A stretch of DNA of 64,000 bases from Patescibacteria group bacterium UBA924 (GTDB lineage Bacteria; Patescibacteriota; Microgenomatia; UBA1400; PJMF01), in the NCBI GenBank assembly GCA_002293725.1, contig DBDU01000019.1, positions 11,792 to 75,791 on the forward strand, in the 5' to 3' direction. The position numbers and the translations under genes were made by a program. Under the pieces are notes generated by a model that did not search any database, was not told the DNA's origin, and was given only the letters and a program-made list of their open reading frames with translations. Positions 2,632-31,698 of this stretch are shown here, piece by piece; the stretch's first letter is position 1, and every line of letters begins with the position of its first letter.

Positions 2632-3954
2632 TTATTTTTTATTTCGCAAAAAGGCTGGTATGTCGAACTCATCCTCAAACTCATTGGCGCCTCCCACCTG
2701 TGAGACTGGTAACGGTGTGGTGCCAGTATCATCTGTGGTCGGAGATTGTGGTTGTGAAGGTGGTGTCGCAGGGCTGCTCCCAAATCCACCTGAAAAAAGT
2801 GATGGTTTAGGTTGGTCAGCACCACTAATCTGTGAAGTGGTCTGGGGCTGAGTGAAAGAGGTTGGGGCTCGATCGATCTTTGTGGGCGTTGGTGGTGTAG
2901 ATTCAGTGGGGGCTGGGCGATCTTTGGCTAGACGCGTAGCTGACTCACGCGAAAACGCTCCAAAGTACGGTCTTGTGCTTGATGCATATCCAAGCTGTTT
3001 CTCATCGAATCCAGTCGCGATAACGCTGATCTTGATCGTTGAGCCCATGTTCTCGTCAATAGTCGCACCGAAGATGACGTTGGCATCTGGGGCGGCAGCG
3101 GCCGCAATAATAGCCGACGCATCCGAGACTTCGCTCATCGACATGTCATTGCCACCGGTGATGTTGTAGAGAATTCCGCGAGCACCATCGATGGAAACTT
3201 CTAAGAGTGGTGAAGAGATAGCCATTCTAGCAGCTGTAGCAGCCCGGTTCTCACCGCTGGCTTGGCCAATACCCATCAAGGCAGAGCCTGAGTCGGCCAT
3301 GATAGTTTTGACGTCAGCGAAGTCGACATTAATTAACCCTGGAATAGTGATTAAGTCAGAGATACCTTGGACACCTTGACCAAGAACGTTATCAGCCAAG
3401 CGGAACGCGTCGATTAAAGTCATTTTTTTATCGACGACATCCATCAAGCGTTGGTTAGGAATGACGATTAAAGTATCGACGTTATCTTTAAGTAGCTCGA
3501 TGCCCTCTTCGGCAGACTGCATCCGACGAATGCCTTCAAAGGAGAATGGTTTGGTGACGACGGCCACCGTTAAAGCACCAGATTCTTTAGCAATTTCGGC
3601 TACGATTGGTGAAGCACCGGTTCCCGTACCACCACCCATACCGGCTGTAATAAAGACCATGTCAGAGTCATAGAGGAGATCTTTTAGTTTCTCTCTACTC
3701 TCTTCGGCAGCCGTGCGACCGACTTCGGGATCGGCACCTGAGCCTAAACCTTTAGTGAAGTTACTGCCAATCTGAACTTTAGTATCTGCTTGGGAAGATA
3801 AAAGGGCTTGTGCATCAGTGTTAATCGTGATGAACTCCACTCCCTGAATCTGGTTGGAGCTGATCATGGAGTTGACTGCGTTGCCGCCGCCGCCACCCAC
3901 GCCAACTACTTTAATTTTAGCGAACGTGGTATTTGTCGGTTTGACCAAACCCAT
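2632..3954 (-). CDS. ftsZ: Cell division GTPase FtsZ
   Basis: [15 protein letters not shown] and the tubulin signature GGGTGTG. A long Pro/Thr/Ser-rich C-terminal linker ends in the conserved FtsA-binding peptide [10 protein letters not shown]. Confidence 0.95.
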
Positions 3955-4025
3955 TGCACTCCTTTACGACTTCTGTGGCCTGTAGTCTACCACCTCTGTC
4001 ACCTTTCGCAACACTCGGCGGTACC

Positions 4026-5336
4026 TCAAGGGAGGAAAGACTTGACTAGTTTAACAACCTGGTTGCCAAGATCCTGTACATTGATTTTTTTGAAGTACTC
4101 TCCAATTGGCATCGACTGAGCAGCTGGCTTACCTGTTGAACGCTTCGCCGCGTAAATGAGCAGCCCGATGCTGGTGGCATAGGAGGGTTTTTGAATATCA
4201 TCGACTAAACCGCGCAGTTCTGTTGGCTTACCTACACGAGCCGGCAAGTTGAGTGTGCGCTTGGCAACTTCAACAATTCCCACTGTCTCTGCTCCACCGC
4301 CTGATAGAACCACCCCGGCGGGAACACCAGCCACTAAGTGATGTTTTTGTAGCTCGGCCAAAATCAAACTGAACATCTCTTTCATTCGTGGCAGCATGAT
4401 GCCTTCAACGATGGTGCGTTTGGATAACGGCTCAGTCTGTTCGTAGATGCCTAGCTTTTGTAGATCCAGCTCATCTTCTTGTTTTTGACGTTTGCGAAAC
4501 TCTTCTTTGGACTCGCCAGGTCGAGGTTTGAGGTTGAAGAGTGGGTCTTGTGCCAAAGCGATCTTGAGCTTCTCTGCACTGTCCAAGCTCATCCGACATC
4601 CTAGGGCGATATCTTGAGTAATGTGACGAGCGCCAATTGGTAGAACACCAGAGTACTGAAGAGCTCCTTCTACATAGGCACAAACAGATGTCGAGCCAGC
4701 CCCAATATCTACTAAGACTACTCCCAGCTCTTTCTCTGTTTCTGAGAGCATGACTTCGGCGGCGGCTAAGCCGGAAAAAACAAAGCCATCAAGCTGTAGG
4801 CCGAGATCTTGGACGATCTTGGCCAAGTTGCGCAAGGCTGGACTTTGGCCGGTAATGATGTGAGCTTCTGCTTCCAACCGCACTCCTGTCATGCCAACAG
4901 GATCTTTGATACCAGTTTGTGAGTCGACGGCAAAGTCGCGTGGGATAACATGAACGATCTCACGGGCTGAAGGCAAAGAAATAGCACGGGCAGCTTCCAG
5001 CACACGATCAACGTCTTCAGGTGTAATCTCTTGCGTTGGCGCCGCTACGGCCACCACGCCTTTGGAGTTTTGTGAAGAGATATTAGCGCCAGAAATGGAG
5101 ATGGTAACTGATTTTACTTCGAGCCCTGCCATACGTTCGGCAGCATCCACACTAGCGGTCATCGTTTCTAAGACGTCTTCTAAATCAACGATCTGACTTT
5201 TGCGCATTCCTTTAGAAGGAACGGCGGCTACGCCAAGCACTTGCAAAGCGTTTGTTTCTGGGTCTTGAGAACCAATCAACGTGACGCACTTATCTGTACC
5301 AAGATCGATCACGCAAAGTGGGCTAGGTCGTAACAT
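4026..5336 (-). CDS. ftsA: Cell division protein FtsA (actin-like ATPase)
   Basis: VIDLGTDKCVTLIG N-terminal phosphate-1 motif, VLVDIGAGSTSV phosphate-2 motif, 436 aa. Sits between ftsQ and ftsZ. Confidence 0.9.
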   Translation of the reverse strand: MLRPSPLCVIDLGTDKCVTLIGSQDPETNALQVLGVAAVPSKGMRKSQIVDLEDVLETMTASVDAAERMAGLEVKSVTISISGANISSQNSKGVVAVAAPTQEITPEDVDRVLEAARAISLPSAREIVHVIPRDFAVDSQTGIKDPVGMTGVRLEAEAHIITGQSPALRNLAKIVQDLGLQLDGFVFSGLAAAEVMLSETEKELGVVLVDIGAGSTSVCAYVEGALQYSGVLPIGARHITQDIALGCRMSLDSAEKLKIALAQDPLFNLKPRPGESKEEFRKRQKQEDELDLQKLGIYEQTEPLSKRTIVEGIMLPRMKEMFSLILAELQKHHLVAGVPAGVVLSGGGAETVGIVEVAKRTLNLPARVGKPTELRGLVDDIQKPSYATSIGLLIYAAKRSTGKPAAQSMPIGEYFKKINVQDLGNQVVKLVKSFLP

Positions 5337-5406
5337 ACTGTATTTACCCTATCATAATTTGACGGTCTTAAGGATAGCAAACTTGGGGTACTGGTTGCAA
5401 AGGGAT

Positions 5407-6165
5407 TCAGCGTGATATGACAGCCGCGGCGGAGGCACTGCTTGAATAGTTCCGCAGAATCACTTGGCTGAACCTCAAGTCGATTTCCGGGATCGTTTCT
5501 TTGAATGTACTAAAATCGAAGTGTTTGAGCAAGTAGGATAGCTTTGCTAACTGTTGTGGCGCTTCTTCAAGCATAAAGTACGCTGTCTTGCCGTTGGGGA
5601 GCTGCAAAGCTGCTTCACTAGGTGAAAGCAAGATGAACTGTGCATCAAGTAATCCTTGTGCTTCCAAGGTAGAAAAAGCGGTAAGGAGCTCGTCATGTAA
5701 TGTTGACTCAATTTTTTCGCGAGTGTTAGGTAAGAACTGAATACCTTCACTTGCGTAAACGACTGGAAAAGTATCATCAGGGTTGGCGAGTCGAATAACA
5801 TAGCCAGCATCATCTACTACCCAGAGTTGACCACTTGGTTCCGCATAGCGATAGCGCGGTTCGGCAGAAAAAAAGGTAATGTGAATCGTATCCGGGAACT
5901 CTTTACTCAACTCGAATCGAGCCAAAAAAGGAGTTAAACGAGTGATCTGTTCACCTACGTCATAAAAGTCGCTAAAAAAAAGTGACTTTCCGAGGTGAGA
6001 GTTGAGCTCAGCTTGAACATAATCAGGACACTCGCCGACGTCAGTTTGACAGGTGATCGTCCGAACGGTGAAGAGTTTGGTTTGGTGAAACACCATGATG
6101 GTGATAACAACCAAGATAACTAGAAACAACGGAAAGACTGTCCGCCAGCCTAATTTCATAGACAA
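5407..6165 (-). CDS. ftsQ: Cell division protein FtsQ/DivIB (single transmembrane helix plus POTRA-like domain)
   Basis: N-terminal transmembrane helix (VFPLFLVILVVITIMVF) followed by a periplasmic domain of about 220 aa. Position between murG and ftsA. Confidence 0.7.
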   Translation of the reverse strand: MSMKLGWRTVFPLFLVILVVITIMVFHQTKLFTVRTITCQTDVGECPDYVQAELNSHLGKSLFFSDFYDVGEQITRLTPFLARFELSKEFPDTIHITFFSAEPRYRYAEPSGQLWVVDDAGYVIRLANPDDTFPVVYASEGIQFLPNTREKIESTLHDELLTAFSTLEAQGLLDAQFILLSPSEAALQLPNGKTAYFMLEEAPQQLAKLSYLLKHFDFSTFKETIPEIDLRFSQVILRNYSSSASAAAVISR

Positions 6166-6182
6166 CAGTGTACGCTACTTCT

Positions 6183-7313
6183 TCAGGTTTGGGCTACAGA
6201 TTGTGCCAACTCATACAGTTTGGCGGTAGGATTTTCTGGGATAGCTTCTTGAAGGGAGACAGCGTGACGCTTTAAGGCTTTATGTTTCTTCTTCATGATT
6301 TTGAGAGCATCAATGAGGGTCTCGGCAGAAGCCTCGCGCTGAGACAGAATTAAGCCGGCGCCAGCATCAGCCATCACCTCGGCATTTAAGCGCTGTTCAT
6401 CATGATGTGCTTGCGGTAAAGGAATAAAGAGGGCGGGTAATCCTACTGCAATCAGCTCACTAACCGTATTTGCGCCGGAGCGGGTCAATACTGAGCTGGC
6501 ATGCTGATAGATCCAAGACAGCTCTTCTTCTGTTACCCACTCGCGGACAAAGTAGAGGTGCTGTTGGGCTATTGGGAGATTACTGCGCGTTTTCTCGAGA
6601 CTCTTTTTATAGTTCATCAAGTTGGTAGGGCTACCACATTGGTGAATAATCCACCAATCTTCTAAAAGACTAGGAAGCGCTTCTTGAACTAAGATATTAA
6701 TGCACTGTGAGCCTTGGTTGCCTCCGGTGATGTAAAGCAAGGGCTTAGTTGGCATAGCAGATGGTAGCCAGGCAGGTGTCTTCGGTTTAGCCGTAAAGAG
6801 TGACTGGCGGAGAGGATTTCCGGTGAAGCGTACTTTCTTGGCAGGAAAGTACTTTTCAGATTCGGGAAAGCTAATGGCAACCGCTGTAGCAAACTTAGAG
6901 ATCCACTGATTTGCTACGCCACCGGTACGAGTCTGTTCATGAGTTAAAACAGGAATGCCCATCGTTTTGGCGGCAATCGCAAAAGGGAGTCCCAGGAAAC
7001 CACCAAAACTAAAGAAGAGGTCTGGCTTGTACTTGGCTAAAAGTTGACGACTACGGTGAATGGCAGCCAACAGGTCTATGAACGTGAGTGGTAACTTCCA
7101 GACTGGTTGTCCATCAAGCTTGGGGGCGTTAAACGGAACAAACGTGACTCCACGTTTGCTGACTTCCTGTTTTTCCCAGCTGCGTTGTTTCAAAGTTGGT
7201 TGAGAGTAAATACGTCCAGCGAAGATAAACTGATCATCTGGGAAGTGTTGCCGAGCATAATCAATCACTGCTAAAGCGGGAGTAAGGTGCCCACCTGAAA
7301 TTAATACTTTCAT
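6183..7313 (-). CDS. murG: UDP-GlcNAc:lipid I N-acetylglucosaminyltransferase MurG
   Basis: MKVLISGGHLTPALAV and GT28 N-terminal and C-terminal domains. The track ORF extends to 7352, but the start at the MKV codon (7311-7313) abuts the ftsW stop. Confidence 0.9.
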   Translation of the reverse strand: MKVLISGGHLTPALAVIDYARQHFPDDQFIFAGRIYSQPTLKQRSWEKQEVSKRGVTFVPFNAPKLDGQPVWKLPLTFIDLLAAIHRSRQLLAKYKPDLFFSFGGFLGLPFAIAAKTMGIPVLTHEQTRTGGVANQWISKFATAVAISFPESEKYFPAKKVRFTGNPLRQSLFTAKPKTPAWLPSAMPTKPLLYITGGNQGSQCINILVQEALPSLLEDWWIIHQCGSPTNLMNYKKSLEKTRSNLPIAQQHLYFVREWVTEEELSWIYQHASSVLTRSGANTVSELIAVGLPALFIPLPQAHHDEQRLNAEVMADAGAGLILSQREASAETLIDALKIMKKKHKALKRHAVSLQEAIPENPTAKLYELAQSVAQT

Positions 7314-7314
7314 C

Positions 7315-8409
7315 TTACGTCTGTCCCCCTGAGTGTTTCTTGCCGATCCCAATCAAGATTCCTACCACGGATAATACCATCACCAGAGAAGTTCCCCCAA
7401 ACGAAAAGAAAGGTAGTGGTACGCCGGTTAATGGAACGAGTGCGACTACAGCTGAAAGATTAAGCACGATCTGCATTCCTAGCCAGATTAAGATGCCATG
7501 GGCAAGTAAGTGGTCGTACGTAGCTGGTTCTGTCTTACGACAGATTTGATGAGCAAGTTTGAGAAATAAGGCGAACAGCAAGATAATCCCCAAACAACCC
7601 AAAAAACCAACTTCCTCTGCCACGATTGAAAAGATCGAGTCGGTACTTGCTTCAGGAATGTAGTTGAACTTTTGCCGCGAGTTACCAATTCCTTGACCAA
7701 TCAGGCCTCCGTTCCCCAGCGCAATGATAATTTGGCGAATGTGAAAACTAGCACCTAGTGGGTCAGACTCGGGATCTAGAAAAGTGGTTAGACGACGCAT
7801 CCGGTAGGGGGAGGTCAAAATTAAGAGCAGTAGTAAGCCAACTCCCGCTCCCCCAGTAGCAAAGAAAGTCTTCCATGGGGCACCAGCTAAAAAGTACAGC
7901 CCAAAAGCGATCGAGATGACAATTAAGGCTGAACCCATGTCTGGTTGAAGGAAGAGTAAGGCCACAGGCAAGCCAGTCAAAAAGAGAAACGGTGGTAACT
8001 TTTGGTGGCGTTCCATCCAGTTTGCAAAAAAAATAATCATGGCAAACTTGACCACTTCGACTGGTTGAAAGCTAAAGCCAGCAATCCCAATCCACCTGCG
8101 AGCTCCATTGACCTCAAATCCTAACCCTGGAATGAAGACCATGATTAATAAAATAATGCTCAAGGCGTACATCAATGGCGAAATTTTCTTCCAAAAAGAA
8201 GTCGGAATAAACGTGCCAACTACTAAACCAACTAGACCTATTCCAAAAGAGATGACTTGTTCCCTGACAAAGTAAAACTGGTTTCCAAAACTAGAGAAAG
8301 CTTCTGCAACCGACGCTTCAAAAACAAACAAGATGCCGATGACGCATAAAATACACGTCAAGAGAAAAAGGCTCCATTCCAGACTAAAGGCAGGGCGGCG
8401 TAGTTTCAT
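7315..8409 (-). CDS. ftsW: Peptidoglycan polymerase FtsW (SEDS family)
   Basis: About 10 transmembrane helices and a SEDS-like motif (SFQPVEVVKFAMIIFFA). The track start at 8451 overlaps murD by 34 nt; the internal Met (MKLRRPAF, 8407-8409) is more likely. Confidence 0.85.
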   Translation of the reverse strand: MKLRRPAFSLEWSLFLLTCILCVIGILFVFEASVAEAFSSFGNQFYFVREQVISFGIGLVGLVVGTFIPTSFWKKISPLMYALSIILLIMVFIPGLGFEVNGARRWIGIAGFSFQPVEVVKFAMIIFFANWMERHQKLPPFLFLTGLPVALLFLQPDMGSALIVISIAFGLYFLAGAPWKTFFATGGAGVGLLLLLILTSPYRMRRLTTFLDPESDPLGASFHIRQIIIALGNGGLIGQGIGNSRQKFNYIPEASTDSIFSIVAEEVGFLGCLGIILLFALFLKLAHQICRKTEPATYDHLLAHGILIWLGMQIVLNLSAVVALVPLTGVPLPFFSFGGTSLVMVLSVVGILIGIGKKHSGGQT

Positions 8410-8417
8410 ACAAGGAC

Positions 8418-9782
8418 TTAAAAATCTTGATTTGCCAGCTGCTCGATCCAAGAACGATACTGTGCAGACTTATCTTCATAGTCCTTAAATTGACCAAAGC
8501 TTGGAGACGAGGGCGACAGTAAGACTACTCCGTTTTCGGGCGCATGTTGATAGGCAAAACGGACGGCTTCTTCCATTGACTCGACCAGCTGCATTTTTGG
8601 CCAGCTACTTTCTGGATACTGAGCTCGAATACCATCAAAAATGAGTTGGCCCGATGGCTTGAAAAAGGCAACGGCCGCAATTTTTTTGGTTTGGATAGCG
8701 TCAATGATCTTTTGATAAGAAATGCCGCGATCAAAGCCACCTACCATTAAGACGTCAACTTTAGGAAGAGAGTCTAAAGCGGCGATGGTCGCTTCTGGAA
8801 TAGTAGCCAGAGTGTCGTCAATCCACGTTACTGCTCCAAACTGACCAACCGTTTCGAGACGATGTGGTAGCGTACGGAACTCTTTCAGTGCGTCGACCAT
8901 TTGATCAGCACTGAGATCTAACTCTAGGCTGGTAACGAGCAGCGCTGGCAAGATGTTCCATTTTTTGATGGTGGACGGAAGATCAAGTTGATTCAACATC
9001 GTCATGACTTGCTGGACAACTTCGGGATACTGAAGTTGAGCTTGATAAGAAAAAGGCAATTTCCGGGCTGGACTGTTTCGAGCGGCGAGTGACAGCTCAG
9101 CTGAGTCTTGATTGTAGATAACTGTGTCATTACTGTTTTGGAAGCGAGTAATCTTGGCTTTAGCGAGGAGATAGTTTTCTAGAGTTCGGTGGTAGTTTAA
9201 GTGCTCAGGAAAAAGATTGAGCAGCACTGCCAGGTGAGGGCTCGTCTGGACTGTTTCTAGCTGATAGCTCGACATCTCAATGACAATAGTTGTCGTTGGA
9301 GTTAGCTCACTGGCAACTTCAAAAACTGGTTTGCCAATGTTGCCAGCTAATAAAACTTCCTTACCTGCGGTAGCGTATAAATGAGCAATCAGACTAGCAG
9401 TGGTACTCTTCCCTTTTGTGCCGGTAATTCCAATTACTTGATCTCGATACACGCTTAAGAACTCTGCCAATTGGGAAGTAACTACTCCACCACTGGCCAG
9501 ATACTCTTGAAGTTCTGGGATGTGAATCGGAACGCCAGGGGTCTTAAAGATAACATCAAACTGTTGCAAGTCTTGGAGATAGGGACCGATACGTAGTTCA
9601 ATGTTTGTTTCCTGCATCCATGCGTGCAGGACATCTTGATTGCCATCGCTAACAAATAACTCAGCTGTGGGACATGCTTTGGTCAGTAAGGTATGGGTAG
9701 TTTGGCCTTCTCTCGCCCAGCCCAAAACTAAGATACGTTTTCCGTCATAGCGTTCAGCAAGATGGGTGGCCAATCTGTTCAT
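8418..9782 (-). CDS. murD: UDP-N-acetylmuramoyl-L-alanine--glutamate ligase (MurD family). Could be a MurD2-type L-Glu ligase given the adjacent MurL-like gene.
   Basis: ILVLGWAREGQ Rossmann-like N-terminus and GITGTKGKSTT P-loop, 454 aa. The ATG overlaps the stop of the upstream PP-loop gene (ATGA). Confidence 0.85.
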   Translation of the reverse strand: MNRLATHLAERYDGKRILVLGWAREGQTTHTLLTKACPTAELFVSDGNQDVLHAWMQETNIELRIGPYLQDLQQFDVIFKTPGVPIHIPELQEYLASGGVVTSQLAEFLSVYRDQVIGITGTKGKSTTASLIAHLYATAGKEVLLAGNIGKPVFEVASELTPTTTIVIEMSSYQLETVQTSPHLAVLLNLFPEHLNYHRTLENYLLAKAKITRFQNSNDTVIYNQDSAELSLAARNSPARKLPFSYQAQLQYPEVVQQVMTMLNQLDLPSTIKKWNILPALLVTSLELDLSADQMVDALKEFRTLPHRLETVGQFGAVTWIDDTLATIPEATIAALDSLPKVDVLMVGGFDRGISYQKIIDAIQTKKIAAVAFFKPSGQLIFDGIRAQYPESSWPKMQLVESMEEAVRFAYQHAPENGVVLLSPSSPSFGQFKDYEDKSAQYRSWIEQLANQDF

Positions 9783-11188
9783 AGCTTCCTTTGGGCGGCA
9801 ATGGCGTCTTTTAAGCTTGGCACAAACTCGGAGGGAATAAAATGGTGTTCTACAAAGCGAACGAGCAGTTCGCGAGCTTCGCTGAGCGCAGCCTCTTTGG
9901 TTTTGCCACTATCAAGAATTTTTTGCCATCCGTACTGAATCAACTCTGGAAGCGGTTGAAGTTGGTTGGCCGCCAGTGCCAAGGCAGCACGAGTCTCGTC
10001 GCGTGTACCTACGCACTCCAGCGACTTTACGTCAGTAAACCCAGCCAGTTGATCTAAAAGATCTCGCAACTCTTGGTTATTGAGAATGTCTTTCTTAAAG
10101 ATACTATCTAGCTCTGTTTCGGTTAAAAATCCGGCCAATAAAACTGCTACAAATAAGCACTTCGGGCACTCACCGCACCAAGTGCCTGTCTTCTGTCCTC
10201 TGTTGCAACTTAAGAAAACGAGCCAGTACTGTTTGAACTGAGTGAACAGTGAGGCAATCTGGAGTTCATGAAGTGGCCTAAGATAGCTAAAGTACTCAAT
10301 TGTTTTGGATAAGTACTGCTGTTGGTACGAACGAAACTGTTCTTCAAACTCTACCGTTTTGGAGTATTGATGGTTAATAGACTGACCAAGAAAAACAGTG
10401 TTGCCTTCGTTGGCGCTCCATTCGTTGGATACGGGAAAGAAAGCGTAGTCATATACATACGCTGCGAACGTGCCTAAGAAAGCAGCCATTGCGTTAAATG
10501 GGGTGTGACCGTTGAGGTATCCTTGGGCATTGAGGTCAAGGATTTGAGGATCGAGCTGACGCTGCACCGTAATATGACTTTTTTGATTGGGCTGAGTTTG
10601 CCAGAACGTTTCCACTACTCGCTGTTGTTGAGGATACTCATTGATCGTAAAAGTAGTCATTGGCGTCTGAGTTTGTCGTAGTAACTCACTACTGACGACT
10701 GAGTCTTTGCCTCCACCAACCGGAAATAAAATACGATGCTGATGAACAGCCTGATCGATTTCGGGATGAAGTTGGTCCGCGTCTTCAACTTCAGTCTGAA
10801 AGGTCACGAAGTTATCTTCCCAACCATTGATTTGATGGATATAGAAGAACTCACTCATGCCTTTGTGTAATAGGTTCAACCAAAACGGAAACTGTTCAGC
10901 ATAGATGCCAGGAACCTTAATGACCCACTCTGGACTGCACGCCGCTTTCCAGTAAGAAAGTCCTTCTACCATTCCAAGCTGAGCAGCCCAGACTTTAAGA
11001 AGTGTTTGATCTTTTGTGGCCAGGGATTCTGCGGTCAATTGAGGAAAGAGGTACCTGCTCTCAAATGCGGGACCAGCTTCAAAGTGGTAGTGCAACCTGA
11101 CAATCAGGTGATCTGACTGTTGATCGAGCACAGCTTGATCAAAGTAAAACCGAGGGTGTTTGAGACGAAGATCATCAAGACTTAGCAT
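9779..11188 (-). CDS. PP-loop ATP pyrophosphatase-like protein with Cys cluster; candidate MurL-like UDP-MurNAc-L-Ala-L-Glu epimerase
   Basis: 469-aa ORF with an SGGxDS-type PP-loop (FPVGGGKDSVV, around residue 155) and a CxxC-containing cluster (CNRGQKTGTWCGECPKC) about 175 residues later, a QueC-like core with N- and C-terminal extensions. It is wedged between mraY and murD and coupled to murD by an ATGA overlap. Confidence 0.5.
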   Translation of the reverse strand: MLSLDDLRLKHPRFYFDQAVLDQQSDHLIVRLHYHFEAGPAFESRYLFPQLTAESLATKDQTLLKVWAAQLGMVEGLSYWKAACSPEWVIKVPGIYAEQFPFWLNLLHKGMSEFFYIHQINGWEDNFVTFQTEVEDADQLHPEIDQAVHQHRILFPVGGGKDSVVSSELLRQTQTPMTTFTINEYPQQQRVVETFWQTQPNQKSHITVQRQLDPQILDLNAQGYLNGHTPFNAMAAFLGTFAAYVYDYAFFPVSNEWSANEGNTVFLGQSINHQYSKTVEFEEQFRSYQQQYLSKTIEYFSYLRPLHELQIASLFTQFKQYWLVFLSCNRGQKTGTWCGECPKCLFVAVLLAGFLTETELDSIFKKDILNNQELRDLLDQLAGFTDVKSLECVGTRDETRAALALAANQLQPLPELIQYGWQKILDSGKTKEAALSEARELLVRFVEHHFIPSEFVPSLKDAIAAQRKL

Positions 11189-11195
11189 GCCAGCA

Positions 11196-12236
11196 TCATA
11201 ACATCGCCAGCCATACTCCGAACAAGGTCAACATGATTTGAACGATCCATGCTCGTTGAACAATTTTGGGCTCTTCCCAACCGTGATACTGCAGCCAAAG
11301 ATGGAAAGGTGAGACCTTGAAGATCTTTTTATGACGGAGTCTTTTAGAGAGGAGCTGTGCACTGGAAGTGAAGATTTCGAAGACGAAAATAAAGCCGATT
11401 ACTACCAAGGCAATTACTTTACCTAGTAGTAGACCTACCACAGCTAAAGTAGCACCAAAAGCGAGCGCGCCCACGTCTCCCATAAAAAGGCGTGCAGGAA
11501 AGATATTAAAGTATAAGAATGAGATCAAGGAACCCAACCAGAGTGCCAACAACATCGAGAGCGGAATGTCTAAGATCTGTGAAGACAAGAACCATAGGCC
11601 AAACAAGGAAATCATTAACACACCGGCAGCCAGCCCATCAAGACCATCGGTAATGTTGACGGCGTTGGTAAAAGCGACGATCACAAAAATGGCAAAAGGA
11701 ATGTATGCCCAGCCAAGCTGGAAGGTCCCCACAAACGGAATGTTAATGAAGGAGATGCCTAACTGGAAGTGCAACATGCAAGCAATAACGGTTGCTAACA
11801 AGATTTGTAAGACAAACTTGTGCTTCATCCGCAAACCAAAAAACTGTTCTTTCTTGAACTGAAAGAACTTTTTAACGTCGTCATACAATCCGAGCAAGCC
11901 AAAGGATAAAAAGGTAAAGAACAAGATATTAATCTCGGTGGGAATGTCATAGACACCAGTGACCGCAATTCCCATGTACTTCACTACCGGAAAGATAAAG
12001 GCAAATAAAACGGTTACTACTAAGATGATCAGTAGTCCTCCACCAACTGGAACACCAGCTTTGACATTATGGAACTGATCAAAGATAGGCGTGTGCTCAC
12101 CAAAAGCATCAATAGTTTTTTGCTTGGCGCGACGAAAACGCATCGCATAGAGCATGTTGATGAAAGGCACGATTAAAATGCTGGTCACCACAAAGGAGAA
12201 AATAAGAAGACCAAGGATAAAAACGAGTGACTGCAT
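11196..12236 (-). CDS. mraY: Phospho-N-acetylmuramoyl-pentapeptide transferase MraY
   Basis: 346 aa, about 10 transmembrane helices, conserved MraY blocks (NAVNITDGLDGLA, FMGDVGALAFG). Confidence 0.93.
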   Translation of the reverse strand: MQSLVFILGLLIFSFVVTSILIVPFINMLYAMRFRRAKQKTIDAFGEHTPIFDQFHNVKAGVPVGGGLLIILVVTVLFAFIFPVVKYMGIAVTGVYDIPTEINILFFTFLSFGLLGLYDDVKKFFQFKKEQFFGLRMKHKFVLQILLATVIACMLHFQLGISFINIPFVGTFQLGWAYIPFAIFVIVAFTNAVNITDGLDGLAAGVLMISLFGLWFLSSQILDIPLSMLLALWLGSLISFLYFNIFPARLFMGDVGALAFGATLAVVGLLLGKVIALVVIGFIFVFEIFTSSAQLLSKRLRHKKIFKVSPFHLWLQYHGWEEPKIVQRAWIVQIMLTLFGVWLAML

Positions 12237-12238
12237 AG

Positions 12239-13558
12239 TTACTGTCTTCTAATGGTAGCACCAAGTGCCTGAAAAACCTCTTCCAAACGTTCATAACCGC
12301 GATCAATGTGCTCGGCACTGTCATGTAAGGTGGTAGTGCCCTCAGCAATTAAGCCGGCGATCATTAACGTTGCGCCATGACGTAAATCTTTAACCGTGAA
12401 CTCACCACCTTTGAGTGGGGTTGGTCCAGTAATCTTGGCCGCGTGTTTATTCTCTGGTTTATCAACATCAAGGTTAAAGTTATACACTTGATCCGGATTT
12501 GCAACTTCGGGATTATACAACTCAATCTTTGCTCCCATGGCATTAAGTGAGTCTACATACTGAAAGCGGTTCTCAGAAACGGTCTCATGTAAGATGCTCG
12601 TCCCACGAGCCTGAGTCATCATCGTTACCCATAAGGGTTGCCAGTCAGTTTTAAAACCTGGATGAATACCAGTAGTAACGTCAGTTGCAGTAAGCTCACC
12701 CTTGTAGAAAAAGCGAACTCCGTAGTTACCAACTTCATAGCCTGCTCCAGCATCATCCAACTTAGCTAAGAACACTTCCAGATCTTTGGCGTCGGCATTC
12801 TCGACGATTACGTCGCCTTTGGTTGCCAGTGCTGCACAGGCAAATGAGACAACCTGGTTGTGATCAGGCATGATTTTATGAATAGCCCCTGATAACTTTG
12901 GGACGCCAATAATCTCAATCACACGATTGGGTTTACGTGTAATCTTGGCTCCCATGCTATTCAGAAACTTAATTAAGTCGTCGATCTCAGTTTCTAAGGC
13001 AGAGTTTTCCAAGATCGTAGTCCCTTTTGCCTTCACTGCTGCCATGATTAATGTCTCGGTTCCAGTATGAGTGCTTTTCTGAAACTTATACGTCGCTCCG
13101 GTCAGCTCTTTAGCCGTGACAATGATCTTGTTATCTTTGACTTCGACTTGTGCACCTAGTGCAATTAAGCCATCAAAGTGACGATCCAGAGGTCGAGCTC
13201 CAATCTTGTCTCCGCCCGGGAAAGGAACTACGGCTCGGCCAAACTTCGCCAACAACGCTGGGATAAACATCGTAGAGGCACGTGAGGCTTCACCAGAAGA
13301 TGGATCGATCTCGTCGAGTTTCAAGCTGGTGGGGTCAATCATGAACGTCCGCTCACCAACCTGCATTGCTTTGGCACCCAGAGAGTTGATTAATGAAGCC
13401 ACTAAGTAAACATCGCTGATGTGACTGAAGTTTAAGATGCGTGATGGTGTATCGGCTAGTAACGCTGCTAACATTAGCTTGTACGACGCGTTCTTCGCTC
13501 CACCCACTCTTACGCTGCCGTATAGTGGTTTACCACCATGAATGACAAAGTTTGACAT
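12239..13558 (-). CDS. murA: UDP-N-acetylglucosamine 1-carboxyvinyltransferase MurA
   Basis: GGAKNASYKLMLAALLAD, 439 aa, EPSP-synthase fold repeats. Confidence 0.93.
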   Translation of the reverse strand: MSNFVIHGGKPLYGSVRVGGAKNASYKLMLAALLADTPSRILNFSHISDVYLVASLINSLGAKAMQVGERTFMIDPTSLKLDEIDPSSGEASRASTMFIPALLAKFGRAVVPFPGGDKIGARPLDRHFDGLIALGAQVEVKDNKIIVTAKELTGATYKFQKSTHTGTETLIMAAVKAKGTTILENSALETEIDDLIKFLNSMGAKITRKPNRVIEIIGVPKLSGAIHKIMPDHNQVVSFACAALATKGDVIVENADAKDLEVFLAKLDDAGAGYEVGNYGVRFFYKGELTATDVTTGIHPGFKTDWQPLWVTMMTQARGTSILHETVSENRFQYVDSLNAMGAKIELYNPEVANPDQVYNFNLDVDKPENKHAAKITGPTPLKGGEFTVKDLRHGATLMIAGLIAEGTTTLHDSAEHIDRGYERLEEVFQALGATIRRQ

Positions 13559-13561
13559 AGA

Positions 13562-14533
13562 TTATTCGAGGAAAAATACCTCTTCCTGGAGTTCAACTCC
13601 AAACTCTTCGTGTACACGTTTTTTAACAATTTTGGCGAGTTCTAGAACTTGTTCACTCGTTCCTTGTCCTTTGTTAACAAAAAAGGCAGCGTGTTTCTGG
13701 CTGACTTCAATATCACCCACACGGGTGCCTTTCAGGCCTGCTTGATCGATTAAGAAGGCAGAGGGACACTCGCGTCGTTCGGCATACTGTGCAAAACGCG
13801 CTTTGAGTAGAGGTGTATTGGATGAGTTACGGAAGTAACACCCTGAGCTAGGTTCTCCTAACGGCTGGGTCTTTGCTCGATAAAGAGTGGCTTCTTTGAC
13901 TAACTCCATTGATTTTTCTTTATTGCCAGGAAAGAGTGCAAACTCGGCTTGCAAGATAATGTCATCGGTTGAGTGAAATACAGAGCTATCGTAAGCGAAC
14001 TGGCACTCTTCTTGTGTTAGCCACTTTACTTCACCTGCTCTCGTAACGACTTCAACTCGGTGGACGTGCTTCCCAATCAGGTCAGAAAGATAGTGGGCAT
14101 TGTTATAAATAGCACCGCCTACTCTACCAGGTACTCCTAAAAAGTACTCTAGACCGCCTAAGCCATCATCAATTGTCTGCCGGACAAATAAGCCTGTTTT
14201 GTATCCTGCACCAACAACTACGAGACGCTGATCACCAATTTTATCTGGTAAAAGCTGATACTCTTCATTGGCAGTTCTGATGACTACCCCTTCGATTCCA
14301 TCGCTGGAAATAACAACGTTGCTCGCTCCCGACAGAACAGTCAGTTTAAGCTTCTGCTTGTGACAGAACTGAACCACTTCAATAATCTCTTCTCTGCCTG
14401 TCAAATCTAAGAAAACTTCGGCTGGACCGCCAATTTTGAAGTAGGTCAACGGGGCTAACGGGTAGTCAAACTCAGGTTTTAACTTAGCTAAGTGCTCTGC
14501 CACTACTGTTTGTGTCTTGGTCAGTTGCTGCAT
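13562..14533 (-). CDS. murB: UDP-N-acetylenolpyruvoylglucosamine reductase MurB
   Basis: FAD-binding YFKIGGPAEVF...TVLSGASNVV, 323 aa. Confidence 0.9.
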   Translation of the reverse strand: MQQLTKTQTVVAEHLAKLKPEFDYPLAPLTYFKIGGPAEVFLDLTGREEIIEVVQFCHKQKLKLTVLSGASNVVISSDGIEGVVIRTANEEYQLLPDKIGDQRLVVVGAGYKTGLFVRQTIDDGLGGLEYFLGVPGRVGGAIYNNAHYLSDLIGKHVHRVEVVTRAGEVKWLTQEECQFAYDSSVFHSTDDIILQAEFALFPGNKEKSMELVKEATLYRAKTQPLGEPSSGCYFRNSSNTPLLKARFAQYAERRECPSAFLIDQAGLKGTRVGDIEVSQKHAAFFVNKGQGTSEQVLELAKIVKKRVHEEFGVELQEEVFFLE

Positions 14534-14535
14534 GA

Positions 14536-16014
14536 TTATGCCTGAATAAGGTCATGTACTTGATAAATATCGCCGGCGCCGATTGTCAGACAAACATCAC
14601 CTGGCCTGAGCTGAGTTTTACAGAACTCTGCCAATTTCTCAAGGGTCTGATAGTTGTGAGTCGTAATCGTTGGATACTTGGTGGCAATTGCCTGGCAGAG
14701 TTGATCACTGGTTACGCTTGGGTCAAATGCTTCGCGGGCAGAAGGGAAGATGTCTATCATGACGACTTCATTTGCTTCGGCAAAAGCATCAATAAACTCA
14801 GTGAAAAACTGTTTGGTGCGCGTAAAGGTGTGCGATTGGAAGGCAACCACTAACTTTCGATCAGGAAACCACTCACGGTAGGCGTGAATAACGCTGTGTA
14901 CTTCGTGAGGGTGATGTGCATAGTCATCATAGTAACGAACGCCATTTTTCTCGCCAATAAACTGACTTCGCCGTAGTGTTGATTGAAAGCTGGCTAAAGC
15001 TGCCACCGCTTTGGGCACGTCGACGCCTAGCGCCCAACATGCGGCAACAGCAGCAGCGGCATTACGCAGGTTGTACATGCCAGGAAGCTGGAGTTGGAGT
15101 CGTTGAGTAAATTGAAGGTGATTGGCGACTAACACACAGCTGGTTTGACCGTTCTGTGCCCAAAAAGTATCGCTGTCTAAGATAAAGCTTGGATGACTAG
15201 CAGGATCCTCGCTGAGATCGGCGCCGGCCGCGGTTTCTCCGAACCAAACTAACTGTCGTTCTTGTGACTCCGACCAATATGGTAGTGATTCAAGAGTAGA
15301 TTGATCAGCGATATTCGCAATTAATGTTCCTCGGGTCTGAACTTGATCGAAGAACTTAGCAAACTGCTTTTTTGTTTGGTCGAAATCTTTGTATACATCA
15401 GGATGATCATGACGAAGGTTGGTACAGACAGTCACAAACGGACGCATAAACGAAAAGCGGGGTGTAATTTCTTCGCCGCGGCTAGGTGCGCTCGGGTCGG
15501 TTACGTACTCATCCGCTTCGGCAATGAAGAACTCTGCTTGCTGATGCCACTGTCCCGTTTTCTCTAAGCCAGGAATGTCTCCAACCCCGATGGCGAAGTT
15601 TGGGTGGTAGCCAAGCTTTTCTAAGATCCAAGTGATCATGGCAGAGGTAGTCGACTTCCCGCCTACCCCACAGACTGCCACGCCCTTGTTGTCGTTAAAG
15701 AGATCTGCAACGGCTTCGGCATGAGTAAAAGTTGGAAGGTTCTGGGCGCTGGCCGCCTTAACTTGCGGATTATCCTGTGAGTTGTGGGCAGCGGTGTAAA
15801 TCACGCACTCGGTTTCGGCAGGTAAAGCTGTGTCAAACGACGAGTCGATCACGATCTGGCGTTGATCTAGCAGTTTCTGGGTTACAAACTCTTCAGCAAC
15901 ATCCGAGCCGCGCACAGACTTGCCAGCGTCCAACAAGCACTGAGCTAGGGCGGTCATGGCCACACCTTTAATTCCTACCAGATAGAAGTTTTGAAACGCT
16001 AGTAAACGAGACAT
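14536..16014 (-). CDS. murC: UDP-N-acetylmuramate--L-alanine ligase MurC
   Basis: YLVGIKGVAMTALAQCLLDAGKSVRGSD (MurC-type N-terminus), GVGGKSTTSAM P-loop, 492 aa. Confidence 0.88.
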   Translation of the reverse strand: MSRLLAFQNFYLVGIKGVAMTALAQCLLDAGKSVRGSDVAEEFVTQKLLDQRQIVIDSSFDTALPAETECVIYTAAHNSQDNPQVKAASAQNLPTFTHAEAVADLFNDNKGVAVCGVGGKSTTSAMITWILEKLGYHPNFAIGVGDIPGLEKTGQWHQQAEFFIAEADEYVTDPSAPSRGEEITPRFSFMRPFVTVCTNLRHDHPDVYKDFDQTKKQFAKFFDQVQTRGTLIANIADQSTLESLPYWSESQERQLVWFGETAAGADLSEDPASHPSFILDSDTFWAQNGQTSCVLVANHLQFTQRLQLQLPGMYNLRNAAAAVAACWALGVDVPKAVAALASFQSTLRRSQFIGEKNGVRYYDDYAHHPHEVHSVIHAYREWFPDRKLVVAFQSHTFTRTKQFFTEFIDAFAEANEVVMIDIFPSAREAFDPSVTSDQLCQAIATKYPTITTHNYQTLEKLAEFCKTQLRPGDVCLTIGAGDIYQVHDLIQA

Positions 16015-16018
16015 GATC

Positions 16019-16996
16019 TTACTGTAACAGTTTGCTGAGAACTTGGCGAACTTTATTCACATCATGGCGTAACAAAGATCGATGAACGGTATCAACGGCT
16101 GTTTTTTTACTGAGCTCTTCAGAAATTAAGTCTGCGCGAATCACGCTAGCATCTTCACCCAGATCATCTTTGACAGGAAACTCGTGGTGAGCTCCATAAA
16201 GCTCAAGAACCGTCTCGGGAATGTGGCCGTTGTTCACGACGGCGTAGTCAACTTTCCGACCAATCGCAGTCTCAATTCCTTCCACATGTTGACGAGCAGT
16301 CATGTCATGGGTCTGTGTGAGCCGGGTCATGAGGTTGACCATACACACTACTTTTGCTTTCGACTCTTGAAATGCTTCTTTAGTGCCTTCTGGCAGCAGG
16401 GCTGCGAGTAAGCTGGCATAGTAATCACCAGGACCAATCACAACTAGCTTTGCTGCTTGGATGGCGGTAGCTGCTTTTGGGTTAATAGTAGCTTGGGGAA
16501 TCAGCTGCACACTCTCAATTGGACGTGGAGTAGTAATATCTTCATCTAAAGTATGTTCGCCGACAATGACTTCACCATCTTTATAGTGAATCTCTAGTTG
16601 AACATTATCTGAAGTAGCAGGAACGACCTCACCGTGAAGTCGGAAGACCTTTTCGGCTATCTCCAACGCACGAGTTGTATCGCCAGTCATATCTTGTAAG
16701 GCGGTCAAAATCAGGTTGCCTAAGTTGTGACCTTTGAGTCCATTCCCTTTCTCAAAGCGGTAAAGCAAAATCTTGCGAATCCACTCTTCACCATCCGCTT
16801 GAGCCAGCGCAGCCAACGCTTGTCGTAGATCGCCTACTGGCTGAAAACCAAACTCATCACGGATTCGGCCGGTTGAACCACCGGAGTCTGAAACGGCAAT
16901 GATGCTGGTTAAGCTGACAGCCTGTTTTTTGAGGGCAGAGATAACTGGGAAAGTGCCAGTGCCGCCACCGATCACCACAACTGAGGTATCAACCAT
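16019..16996 (-). CDS. yvcK: YvcK/CofD-family protein (gluconeogenesis factor / UDP-GlcNAc-binding GlmR-like)
   Basis: VVIGGGTGTFPV...VSDSGGSTGRIR signature of UPF0052/CofD, 325 aa. Confidence 0.85.
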   Translation of the reverse strand: MVDTSVVVIGGGTGTFPVISALKKQAVSLTSIIAVSDSGGSTGRIRDEFGFQPVGDLRQALAALAQADGEEWIRKILLYRFEKGNGLKGHNLGNLILTALQDMTGDTTRALEIAEKVFRLHGEVVPATSDNVQLEIHYKDGEVIVGEHTLDEDITTPRPIESVQLIPQATINPKAATAIQAAKLVVIGPGDYYASLLAALLPEGTKEAFQESKAKVVCMVNLMTRLTQTHDMTARQHVEGIETAIGRKVDYAVVNNGHIPETVLELYGAHHEFPVKDDLGEDASVIRADLISEELSKKTAVDTVHRSLLRHDVNKVRQVLSKLLQ

Positions 16997-16999
16997 GAC

Positions 17000-18247
17000 T
17001 TACTCCTTTTTTGGATCTAACGCTAGCAGTGCCTCTTGTGCCGCAGTGAGGTCACTCCAAGGATACTCTACCTTACCATAACTCATACTCTTTTCATGTC
17101 CTTTTCCGAAAATTCCGACGACGTCACCTGACTTAGCGTACTTTTGAATGGCAAAGTCGATTGCTTCCTGGCGGTCAGCAATGGAAGCCACTTTCTGGTG
17201 GTTCTTACCCAAGTTAGACTTCATTTGGCGAATGATTGACCAAACATCTTCTGTTCGCGGATCTTCGGCCGTGAAGATGGCAAAGTCAGCAAGCTCGGCT
17301 CCGATTCTTCCCATCATCGGTCTTTTCTGGACGTCACGTAAGCCGGCACAACCGAAAACAGCAATCAATCTTCCTTTGGACTTTTCCTGTTTCATTTTCT
17401 TTCGAACTGCCGTCAAAGCAGACTCTAACGCATTTGGTGTATGCGCAAAATCGATGATCACTTGAATGTTCTTTACTTTACCAACATGCTGCATTCTTCC
17501 TGGGACTCCGGGAAACTCTTTGAGCCCCTTGGCAAAGTCTTGGTCACTGACCTGGAGCTGCTTAGCAATGGTATAGACCAGTCGGGCATTCATCTGGTTA
17601 TAGAGTTGAGGGAAACGATCTTGAATAGCTTTCGAAACGCTAGTGGGAAGACGTTCAGAACGTGAGTAGCTGAGGATGTCGTCTTCTCTGCCGCTAAGCT
17701 GTTTTTTCAACTCGCGGAAAGAGTTACTGTCATCTGCATTTAAGACAATTTTCTCCGCTCTTTTGGCTAGCAAGGCTTTAGCAGCGACGTACTCTTGATA
17801 GGTCACGTGATAGTCCAAGTGTTCGTGAGTGATGTTCGTATAGCCAGCAATCTTTGGATACACTCCCCATAAGCGGTGTTGATATAACCCGTGTGAGGTA
17901 GTTTCTAAGACAACGTACTCGATGCCTAGCTCAGCCATCTTGGCTAAAAAACGCTGTACGTCACCTGCATCAGGAGTGGTGACGTGGAAGCCGGTATCAA
18001 TCTCCTCGTCACCAATGTAGGCCGCGACGGTAGTCACTAACGCAACCTTTTTGCCGGCCGCTTTCAGAATGTAGTACAACAGCGTTGACGAGCTGGTTTT
18101 GCCGTCGGTACCGGTAATAGCGATAATCTTTAACTTGCGCGCAGGAAAACCGTACTGGAGCTCTGCGAGAAATCCGCGGAGGAGGCCAGTTTTAATCAAG
18201 TGGAAGAAACGCTTGATTTTATAAAGAAGAAGCTTCGTCATCTGCAT
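17000..18247 (-). CDS. murE: Mur ligase family protein, MurE-like (UDP-MurNAc-tripeptide synthetase) with a short N-terminal domain
   Basis: IAITGTDGKTSSS P-loop. C-terminal TAEDPRTED resembles the MurE DNPR motif. Only 415 aa. Position after ftsI is as in canonical dcw clusters. Confidence 0.6.
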   Translation of the reverse strand: MQMTKLLLYKIKRFFHLIKTGLLRGFLAELQYGFPARKLKIIAITGTDGKTSSSTLLYYILKAAGKKVALVTTVAAYIGDEEIDTGFHVTTPDAGDVQRFLAKMAELGIEYVVLETTSHGLYQHRLWGVYPKIAGYTNITHEHLDYHVTYQEYVAAKALLAKRAEKIVLNADDSNSFRELKKQLSGREDDILSYSRSERLPTSVSKAIQDRFPQLYNQMNARLVYTIAKQLQVSDQDFAKGLKEFPGVPGRMQHVGKVKNIQVIIDFAHTPNALESALTAVRKKMKQEKSKGRLIAVFGCAGLRDVQKRPMMGRIGAELADFAIFTAEDPRTEDVWSIIRQMKSNLGKNHQKVASIADRQEAIDFAIQKYAKSGDVVGIFGKGHEKSMSYGKVEYPWSDLTAAQEALLALDPKKE

Positions 18248-18278
18248 AATTCTAATCGTTTCTCTCTGGCATTATAAC

Positions 18279-20111: not shown

Positions 20112-20117
20112 AGCTGA

Positions 20118-20402
20118 TTATCTTGAAGCTACGACAGTGCTCGTGTCAACACGAACGATGTTCTGGATAGCTACGAAGCCTTGAGCCACAGCATCTTGAT
20201 TGAGCTGGGTCATGGAAAGAAATTGCGCAGTTTGTTGCTCAACGCGTCCGACGCGAGCAGCCATCTGTCGTTTTTGATTCTCTAAAGAGGAGATGCGTTT
20301 ACCGTAGTCAATATGGGTGCTGCCAATAAAAACGGTGTGCAAAGCGATGCCAAATGTTAGCAGGCTGAGAAATGCATAGTAGGCAACGTATTTTCGATTC
20401 AT
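20118..20402 (-). CDS. ftsL: Cell division protein FtsL-like (transmembrane helix plus coiled coil)
   Basis: 94 aa with N-terminal transmembrane helix (VAYYAFLSLLTFGIALHTVFI) and a short coiled region. Position between rsmH and ftsI. Confidence 0.65.
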   Translation of the reverse strand: MNRKYVAYYAFLSLLTFGIALHTVFIGSTHIDYGKRISSLENQKRQMAARVGRVEQQTAQFLSMTQLNQDAVAQGFVAIQNIVRVDTSTVVASR

Positions 20403-21304
20403 GATTCTTTCTTGGCGAACACTCGTAACTTGGCGCTTCGCGATCTTGGATTGTGGGTAACTTCTGCTTCAGTTGGCATAACGGCCTTTTTATCAAGTGG
20501 CTGGCCATAGCCTTTGTCTTGCCATTTTTGGAAGAGATGTTTGACAACTCGATCTTCACCTTCGTGGAAGCTAATCGTCACGATCTTGCCTCCTGCCTGA
20601 ACAACTTCTAAAGCTTGAGGTAAAGCAGCTTCGATACTGTCTACTTCACTGTTGACTGCCATTCGTAAAGCCTGGAAGACTTTAGTGGCAGGATGAAGGT
20701 GTCCTGTTCTTGGTTTCACTTTACTAATCGCCTCGGCTAGCTCTTGGGTCGTAGTGAACGGCTTGCGAGTGCGTTGTTGAACGATCATCTTGGCAATTCG
20801 ACGGCTCTGTTCTTCGCCGCCGTAGACCCAGAAAAGCTCTGCCAACTGTTTTTCGGGCAGAACGATCAGCAAGTCTTTAGCTTGAACTCCGAGACGCTTA
20901 TCCATTCTCATATCGAGCGGACCGTTGTGAATGAAGCTAAAGCCTCGTTCGGCGGTATCGATCTGAGGGCTACTAACGCCAAAGTCAAACAAAATACCAG
21001 CAATAGCTGGAATATCTTTCTCTGTGCGGAGCCGTTCCCAGGAGTCTTTGAGCTTGCCAAAGTTTTGATTAATCAGAATCAGCCGACCGTCTTGAATTTC
21101 TTGAGCGAAGTTTGCTTCGCCGAAGGCTACTGCGTCCTGATCACAATCGAAACCGATCACCCGTCCACCTCGTTCGAGAATGGCTCGGGTGTGGCCGCCT
21201 CGGCCAAAGGTGGCGTCGATGTACCACTGGGTTGCGTTCACTTGGAGTGCGTCAAGTGCTTCGGTCTTTAGCACACTAATGTGTTCATTCATGTGTTGTT
21301 CCAA
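20399..21304 (-). CDS. rsmH: 16S rRNA (cytosine1402-N4)-methyltransferase RsmH (MraW)
   Basis: YIDATFGRGGHTRAIL SAM-binding motif, 301 aa. The start may be the internal Met at 21292. Confidence 0.92.
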   Translation of the reverse strand: MEQHMNEHISVLKTEALDALQVNATQWYIDATFGRGGHTRAILERGGRVIGFDCDQDAVAFGEANFAQEIQDGRLILINQNFGKLKDSWERLRTEKDIPAIAGILFDFGVSSPQIDTAERGFSFIHNGPLDMRMDKRLGVQAKDLLIVLPEKQLAELFWVYGGEEQSRRIAKMIVQQRTRKPFTTTQELAEAISKVKPRTGHLHPATKVFQALRMAVNSEVDSIEAALPQALEVVQAGGKIVTISFHEGEDRVVKHLFQKWQDKGYGQPLDKKAVMPTEAEVTHNPRSRSAKLRVFAKKES

Positions 21305-30071: not shown

Positions 30072-30075
30072 ATGA

Positions 30076-31200: not shown

Positions 31201-31220
31201 GGCATTACAGACGCGAGGTC

Positions 31221-31676: not shown

Positions 31677-31698
31677 GAGGCTCCTTTATCTTTATGTA

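Follow-up and report, generated by a model that had tools for sequence, protein, structure and literature searches.

A predicted MurL-type epimerase co-translated with a MurD2-type ligase in the dcw cluster of a member of the Patescibacteria

The murL-murD pair in the dcw cluster

We analyzed a 64-kb stretch of DNA from Patescibacteria group bacterium UBA924 (contig DBDU01000019.1; the whole stretch is referred to here as the window) that contains a dcw cluster on a single strand and, within it, an additional gene between mraY and murD (Table 1). In the list of open reading frames (ORFs) this gene, here called murL, is an ATG-started ORF of 469 amino acids on the minus strand. Based on family membership, a PP-loop fold, gene coupling and MurD2-type specificity residues, we predict with high confidence that it encodes a MurL-family epimerase, co-translated with a MurD2-type ligase that adds L-glutamate (L-Glu). 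When the sequence is read, the ATG of murD (9782-9780) overlaps the TGA stop of murL (9781-9779). An earlier sequence-only reading of this DNA had placed a 469-residue gene between mraY and murD with an ATGA overlap but had stated no strand; the gene and the overlap are as described, and the strand is minus.

The genes of the cluster are ordered mraZ, rsmH, an FtsI-like penicillin-binding protein (PBP) gene, murE, a yvcK-like gene, murC, murB, murA, mraY, murL, murD, ftsW, murG, an ORF in the ftsQ position, ftsA and ftsZ. The cluster thus contains murA and murB which, along with murC, ftsW and murG, were assigned by ORF order, by matches in related loci and by Pfam calls on an identical JGI contig. 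mraZ is preceded by a promoter-like site (21888-21859). From mraY to murD the minus strand has no promoter- or terminator-like site, and such sites around murL are at or near chance level. The start codon of murL is consistent with the relative P0001, which is 97% identical at 100% coverage and is also 469 amino acids long. The identical MurL protein was found on 15 public contigs, six of them >1 Mb, and its closest named relative (MBW7956211.1, from a Patescibacteria group bacterium, 97% identity) is listed as a 'hypothetical protein'.

Table 1. Coordinates of the features discussed in the text (positions in the window, except where another locus is named)
Feature	Position	Strand	Remarks
murL	9779..11188	-	N-terminal domain, predicted QueC-like PP-loop core, C-terminal helical domain
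mraY	11196..12236	-	directly upstream of murL, 7-nt spacer; NCBIfam TIGR00445, E 1.1e-49
murD, predicted MurD2 (L-Glu-adding) type	8418..9782	-	translationally coupled to murL; TIGR01087, E 3.5e-92; Pfam Mur ligase M and C domains
ATGA stop/start overlap of murL and murD	9779..9782	-	tcat on the plus strand
PP-loop GGGKDS, MurL residues 158-163	10700..10717	-	predicted ATP pyrophosphate-binding loop
Four-cysteine cluster C328-x9-C338-x2-C341-x2-C344	10157..10207	-	QueC-type spacing; all four Cys invariant in 61 sequences
Cys392 in the KSxECVGTRxE loop, C-terminal domain	10013..10015	-	invariant; candidate acid/base residue (speculative)
Single-strand dcw cluster	2632..21713	-	ORF list, NCBIfam and Pfam
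YvcK/CofD-related UDP-GlcNAc-binding gene	16019..16996		between murE and murC; TIGR01826, E 9e-78
murE, short, 415 aa	17000..18247		aligns to positions 73-471/472 of TIGR01085
NHL-repeat/fibronectin-III protein, 534 aa	21970..23574		directly upstream of the dcw cluster
DUF4012 protein, 705 aa	25007..27124		upstream of the dcw cluster
Surface-glycan/glycosylation locus, ~37 kb	27164..64000	almost entirely -	
RuvABC	38625..40745		embedded in the glycan locus
ORFs without a Pfam family	23623-24435, 31221-31676, 48832-49950, 60014-61270, 61239-62972		
MurL-MurD fusions	L024:410-3211, L042:9920-12664, L045:9941-12928, L075:9911-12697		stop-to-stop frames
Long fusion representatives P0251, P0289, P0304, P0346, P0361			assigned by Pfam

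Family membership, fold and predicted chemistry of MurL

The window protein matches the NCBIfam model NF041275 (MurL) over its full length, with residues 13-460 aligned to model positions 9-444/447 (E 3.4e-72, 243.4 bits). This model, named MurL_Xanthmoales, is an equivalog model for UDP-N-acetyl-alpha-D-muramoyl-L-alanyl-L-glutamate epimerase MurL and has a cut-off of 700 bits. Both Pfam MurL domains, MurL_N and MurL_epimerase_C, are among the precomputed hits of the sequence (E <=1e-5); our local Pfam copy holds neither of the two models, and a scan against it gave a weak match to DUF6395 (E 7.7e-4). All 120 listed homologues carry PF26298 (MurL_epimerase_C) and PF26299 (MurL_N), relatives number in the thousands in a large protein collection, and several JGI homologues with 47-59% identity are already named UDP-N-acetyl-alpha-D-muramoyl-L-alanyl-L-glutamate epimerase. 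Because the family has curated models in Pfam and NCBIfam and close relatives are named by JGI, the window MurL is of a known kind, and the pair is a member of the MurL/MurD2 pathway already described, not a new system. This outcome agrees with the sequence-only reading, which had put the gene forward as a candidate MurL-like epimerase, and those of its proposed checks that were run all favored it; its fallback, an undescribed enzyme that modifies lipid II precursors, is not needed.

To describe conservation, we used an alignment of the window MurL with 60 homologues (61 sequences, 37-69% identity). The PP-loop has three invariant residues (G159, G160 and D162), the other three (G158, K161 and S163) being conserved in at least 90% of the sequences. 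The motif CGECPKC corresponds to residues 338-344, and its three cysteines (C338, C341 and C344) are invariant together with a further one, C328. Since the PP-loop and cysteine motifs are conserved across the alignment, they are not chance matches. Altogether 36 columns are invariant, including C392, H228, H273, K277, K388, E256 and E261; C84 is also among the family-invariant residues. Within the KSxECVGTRxE loop, K388 and C392 are invariant and E391, V393, G394 and E398 are conserved in at least 90%.

An AlphaFold2 model built on this alignment (pLDDT 96.7, pTM 0.94) has QueC as its best Foldseek match (E ~2.5e-4), followed by QatC and TtuA, and its structural neighbours include NAD synthetase and asparagine synthetase B as well as QueC. 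When the profile of the alignment was compared with solved structures, TtuA PH0300 was matched (E 3.7e-6), with vPvgGGkDS aligned to VAVSGGKDS. In the model, GGGKDS comes after strand 150-156 and opens helix 161-171. Based on the Foldseek and profile matches, the modelled core (residues ~150-350) belongs to the QueC subgroup of PP-loop ATP pyrophosphatases and has a QueC-like spacing of the four cysteines. Its fold is the Rossmann-like alpha/beta/alpha one common to QueC, TilS, ThiI and the GMP, NAD and argininosuccinate synthetases. An N-terminal alpha/beta domain precedes this core and a C-terminal helical domain follows it, and both have family-invariant residues. The sequence-only reading had pointed to GGGKDS and CGECPKC with QueC-like spacing and to extra N- and C-terminal domains; the motifs are borne out by conservation, by the fold search and by the TtuA profile match, and the domains are present in the model. 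Neither a sequence nor a profile search of known structures gave a solved MurL structure. The literature describes MurL as having no known domains, and in the literature that we searched we found no link of MurL to the PP-loop or QueC families, nor to Patescibacteria; the TM7x transcriptome paper mentions galE alone.

The likeness to QueC and TtuA raises the question of whether the gene encodes an unrelated PP-loop enzyme (QueC, TilS or a TtuA-like enzyme of tRNA or nucleobase modification) that came to lie in the dcw operon by chance. Weak matches to Pfam QueC (E 0.08, 12.8 bits, with a threshold of 22) and to NCBIfam TtuA (E 0.18) speak for this explanation. However, these matches span the cysteine cluster or the PP-loop alone and are far under the family cut-offs (the QueC match joins residues 303-345 to model positions 155-200/210, the cysteine cluster only), whereas MurL is matched at full length. 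In addition, the order murL-murD is kept in several phyla and there are fusions of MurL to Mur enzymes, as described below. We give this explanation practically no weight, and an identity as QueC, TilS or TtuA was refuted. Profile searches against the MurL and the QueC and other PP-loop families had been proposed in the sequence-only reading as a way to decide the matter, and they returned MurL at full length and QueC under its threshold.

Adenylation of the substrate with release of pyrophosphate (PPi) is the general reaction of PP-loop enzymes. For this reason, a PP-loop core in MurL fits the published use of one ATP and the formation of AMP. Both this stoichiometry, ATP to AMP, and a direction that runs only from L to D are known from the enzymes of Xanthomonas, Micromonospora and Salinispora. 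In the mechanism that we propose, MurL would bind the MurD2 product and ATP in the QueC-like PP-loop domain and would adenylate the alpha-carboxylate of the terminal L-Glu, with release of PPi. The activated Glu would then lose its C-alpha proton and be reprotonated from the opposite face. N-acyl amino-acid active esters form oxazolones, and here too the amide that precedes the Glu may take part in an oxazolone intermediate. Hydrolysis of the adenylate would free AMP and the product with D-glutamate (D-Glu), and MurL would be one-way owing to its use of ATP and to the selectivity of adenylation for its substrate. Candidates for the C-alpha base are the invariant residues C392, C84, H228, H273, K277 and K388. 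By analogy with QueC, the four invariant cysteines probably bind a structural Zn. Taken together, the candidate bases and adenylation by the PP-loop core yield a mechanism of MurL that can be tested.

Adenylation of the Glu alpha-carboxylate by a PP-loop enzyme could also, if the chemistry of the family has diverged in this lineage, lead to amidation (iso-glutamine) or to attack by another nucleophile. Consistent with this, the structural neighbours QueC, NAD synthetase and asparagine synthetase B adenylate carboxylates for amide or nitrile formation, the score of MurL is below the equivalog cut-off, and there is no assayed member from Patescibacteria. On the other hand, the match to the MurL model is full length, with no domain gained or lost, the operon is without a glutaminase domain or partner, and epimerization is the function common to proteobacterial and actinobacterial MurL. 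Furthermore, the L-Glu signature of the partner MurD would leave an L-Glu stem unless an epimerase acts. Iso-glutamine is made by another route, by MurT/GatD. We therefore consider amidation or a similar reaction very unlikely and favor epimerization as the predicted activity of the window MurL.

The linked MurD, MurL relatives across phyla and the proposed source of D-Glu

The specificity of the neighboring MurD was assessed at positions known from mutagenesis. According to the review PMC8788868, which covers the mutagenesis of Feng et al. 2019, E197, R358, P433 and F435 of Xanthomonas oryzae MurD2 correspond to D182, K348, A414 and L416 of Escherichia coli MurD. In the same account, the E197D/R358K double mutant of the X. 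oryzae enzyme becomes a D-Glu ligase, E. coli MurD K319T gains acceptance of L-Glu, and P433 and F435 are present but do not determine specificity. We verified the mature numbering of E. coli K-12 MurD on K115, D182, H183, K198, K319 and K348; the motif NDSKAT holds K319 and T321, and K348 is the lysine of GGDGK. Aligned to this protein, the window MurD has E/L/T/R/P/S/F/Y at positions 182/319/321/348/414/415/416/422. All four MurD2 residues are present and K319 is absent. At 182/319/348, E. coli MurD has D/K/K, and four canonical MurD structures (three gram-negative-type and that of S. agalactiae) have D/K/K or T/K/R. The published L-Glu determinants thus place the neighboring murD in the MurD2 type, as the sequence-only reading had expected if the gene encodes a MurL. 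Given the E and R residues and the absence of K319, the window MurD is predicted to be unable to use D-Glu.

The same protein scores 309.8 bits on the D-Glu ligase model TIGR01087, which has a cut-off of 212. Because this score is above the cut-off, annotation pipelines will name the window MurD a D-Glu ligase, and the naming of such genes by TIGR01087 is probably a systematic misannotation. No bacterial MurD2 model was among the hits shown for the window MurD.

We scanned one genome per species of GTDB, which gave at least 587 confirmed MurL relatives, and fetched the best 80 loci. The relatives span Patescibacteria, Bacteroidota, Bacillota, Acidobacteria and others. By label, the 80 loci comprise 21 from Patescibacteria, 29 from Bacteroidota, 16 from Bacillota and 14 from other groups; Xanthomonas and Micromonospora are not among them. 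Saccharibacteria, Microgenomates lineages, Paceibacterota and the complete genome of Minisyncoccus archaeiphilus are represented among the Patescibacteria, Pseudobutyrivibrio xylanivorans DSM 14809 is among the Bacillota, and Acidobacteria and Rokuibacteriota are among the other groups. In ~70 of the 80 loci, the next ORF after murL on the same strand is MurD-like, and a further 5 have both in a single frame. The remaining loci are mostly on short or truncated contigs, and L030 and L050 have no murD in the fetched flank. The order found in the window, mraY-murL-murD-ftsW, recurs in 14 fetched loci, mostly labelled Patescibacteria, and in three further loci mraY-murL-murD is present but no ftsW was detected. 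In the other loci the murL-murD pair stands alone.

A total of 75 linked MurDs, from 74 fetched loci and the window, were scored at the specificity positions. E182 was found in 70 of 75 and R348 in 73 of 74, while none of 74 had K319, nearly all of them carrying I or L there. Position 414 is variable, with A, P, S or T, and with one exception position 416 is Y or F.

Four Bacteroidota loci encode MurL and MurD as a single polypeptide of 915-996 amino acids (measured as stop-to-stop frames; Table 1), and a shorter single frame with both MurL and MurD is present in locus L071. An exhaustive HMMER search of 1.84 billion cluster representatives (50% identity) gave 2253 hits at E <=1e-3, 1068 of them at E <=1e-30. 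Among the best 150 representatives, ~30 are 780-1083 amino acids long, and those long proteins that we sampled are, by Pfam, fusions of MurL with a Mur ligase, of a Mur ligase (PF01225 N-domain) with MurL, and of MurB with MurL. The linkage and the fusions across phyla tie the MurL family to the cytoplasmic steps that act on UDP-MurNAc-peptides.

Some loci deserve separate mention. In L082 (a 7-Mb genome, 51% GC over the fetched locus; protein P0133), murL is followed by a MurD with E/L/R at 182/319/348, and next after the pair come genes for an MR_MLE protein of the enolase superfamily and for an M20 peptidase (L082:7487-11229). The MR_MLE family includes L-Ala-D/L-Glu epimerases, and these neighbors hint at a link to muropeptide recycling. 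The MurL of L040 (DASPLQ010000012.1, labelled 'Vitreimonas sp.') has its nearest relatives in Patescibacteria (Woesebacteria and similar), on contigs of ~1-1.4 Mb, and its taxon label is probably wrong. The labels of L008, L031 and L046 ('uncultured Enterobacteriaceae/Pseudomonadales') look equally unlikely.

With D-Glu formed after ligation, the organism would need no glutamate racemase. No MurI motifs were found in any frame of the 64-kb window, and Asp_Glu_race, Aminotran_4, D-amino-acid aminotransferase, alr, ddl and murF were all without a match among the window ORFs scanned. The MurL/MurD2 pair could nevertheless be real but auxiliary, if D-Glu from MurI, a D-amino-acid aminotransferase, a moonlighting DapF or a host is also used. 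This explanation draws on the extent of the search, 64 kb, and on the existence of hidden D-Glu sources, given that DapF of Chlamydia acts as a D-Glu racemase (PMC5885031). It is also consistent with the description, in PMC11623550, of cultivated Patescibacteria as episymbionts on other microbes. Yet the sole MurD-like gene in the window is of the MurD2 type and occupies the canonical dcw slot of murD. Since D-Glu is not a predicted substrate of a MurD with E/R and without K319, there would be no way for free D-Glu to enter the pathway. Moreover, the published MurL/MurD2 organisms are without D-Glu-forming genes. We regard an auxiliary role as improbable, and prefer MurL and MurD2 as the D-Glu route of this organism.

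Several observations weigh against the assignment of the pair to the MurL/MurD2 pathway. The score of the window MurL, 243.4 bits, is under the clade-specific equivalog cut-off of NF041275, so that the protein would be at best a distant orthologue of the Xanthomonadales MurL. The name of the model points to Xanthomonadales, which suggests that the miss marks distance from that clade and not non-homology. Experimentally tested MurL members include none from Patescibacteria, Bacteroidota or Bacillota, and the link to the characterized MurL/MurD2 was made via the profile and published residues, not via direct alignment or a tree. Carboxylate adenylation by a PP-loop also opens the way to amidation, and the chemistry alone is no proof of epimerization. 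The absence of murI covers 64 kb of a ~1.2-Mb genome. In one Patescibacteria locus (L028), the murD at 11202-12566, right after murL, keeps D182 and K348 and has A/S in place of K319/T321, and the glutamate stereospecificity of this MurD cannot be predicted. Finally, the MurD residues shared among loci could partly mirror descent of a mobile murL-murD cassette and not independent constraint.

Elsewhere in the dcw cluster, most of the N-terminal domain of murE seems to be missing; the PBP gene upstream ends at 18279 and leaves no space for a longer murE start. The glycan locus encodes at least 14 GT1/GT2/GT4 glycosyltransferases and four PMT_2-type and one AftD-like GT-C enzymes, together with a Wzy_C protein, a flippase, sugar epimerases/dehydratases, hexapeptide acyltransferases and methyltransferases. 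On the plus strand of the window, only one long ORF, at 44701-45714, has a family match. The first 2 kb hold an ORF that runs off the end and is aminoacyl-tRNA-synthetase-like by eye, and no tRNA or Rfam hits were found in the whole 64 kb.

Comparison with known systems

X. oryzae is the organism in which the MurL/MurD2 pathway was found (2017; reviews PMC8788868 and PMC5808125), and Micromonospora and Salinispora provided its confirmation. In the published view it is confined to 'relatively few bacterial genera', and this view underlies proposals for narrow-spectrum antibiotics. Our scans speak against such a restriction, with relatives in at least 587 species-representative genomes and one and the same signature of the partner ligase throughout. 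The breadth of the family, its conserved place in the dcw cluster of Patescibacteria and the QueC-like PP-loop fold go beyond the literature that we searched, and the pathway looks far more widespread than the literature states. We lean towards the view that MurD2/MurL is the standard D-Glu route in Patescibacteria and in many Bacteroidales, Lentimicrobiaceae, Lachnospiraceae and Ruminococcus, with MurL a QueC-like, probably Zn-containing, PP-loop adenylating enzyme. If this is true, thousands of 'MurD D-glutamate ligase' annotations would be wrong, a missing murI in reduced genomes would be no sign of D-Glu auxotrophy, inhibitors of MurL/MurD2 would not be narrow-spectrum, and the ATP-consuming epimerase MurL would have a first structural rationale. 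For this genome, the result would account for D-Glu in peptidoglycan synthesis with no racemase needed, and it would correct two annotations, the 97%-identical GenBank 'hypothetical protein' and the MurD named as a D-Glu ligase.

The window protein and Xanthomonas MurL have in common full-length homology via the NCBIfam model and both Pfam MurL domains. In both, the gene adjoins and precedes that of a MurD-type ligase with L-Glu determinants, and the predicted PP-loop core of the window MurL accounts for the reported ATP-to-AMP requirement. The two differ in distance (243 bits versus the 700-bit cut-off), and Patescibacteria are not listed in the published distribution of MurL. The window pair lies in the dcw cluster, in the canonical place of murD, and is translationally coupled; its activity is predicted from the sequence. 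The window MurD has in common with X. oryzae MurD2 (XOO_1320), compared via published positions and E. coli numbering and not by direct alignment, the residues E, R, P and F (E197, R358, P433 and F435). The window MurD is also without K319, the residue whose mutation allows E. coli MurD to accept L-Glu.

Compared with QueC, the QueC-like Cap9 and QatC, MurL has a PP-loop in the same place, at the first strand-helix turn, and a similar C-x(n)-CxxCxxC spacing. The start of the chemistry, carboxylate adenylation, would also be common to MurL and QueC. In contrast, identity is 16-17%, the match is under the Pfam QueC threshold, and MurL adds an N-terminal domain of ~145 amino acids and a C-terminal helical domain of ~115 amino acids, with family-invariant residues. 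The substrate of MurL would be the UDP-muramyl dipeptide and the outcome epimerization, not nitrile formation. By analogy, MurL works like QueC in the first half-reaction but is not a QueC.

MurI and MurL both supply the D-Glu stereocenter of the peptidoglycan stem. MurI, a cofactor-independent two-cysteine racemase, works on free glutamate, reversibly and ahead of ligation, whereas MurL acts after ligation, uses ATP and is unidirectional, and the folds of the two enzymes are unrelated.

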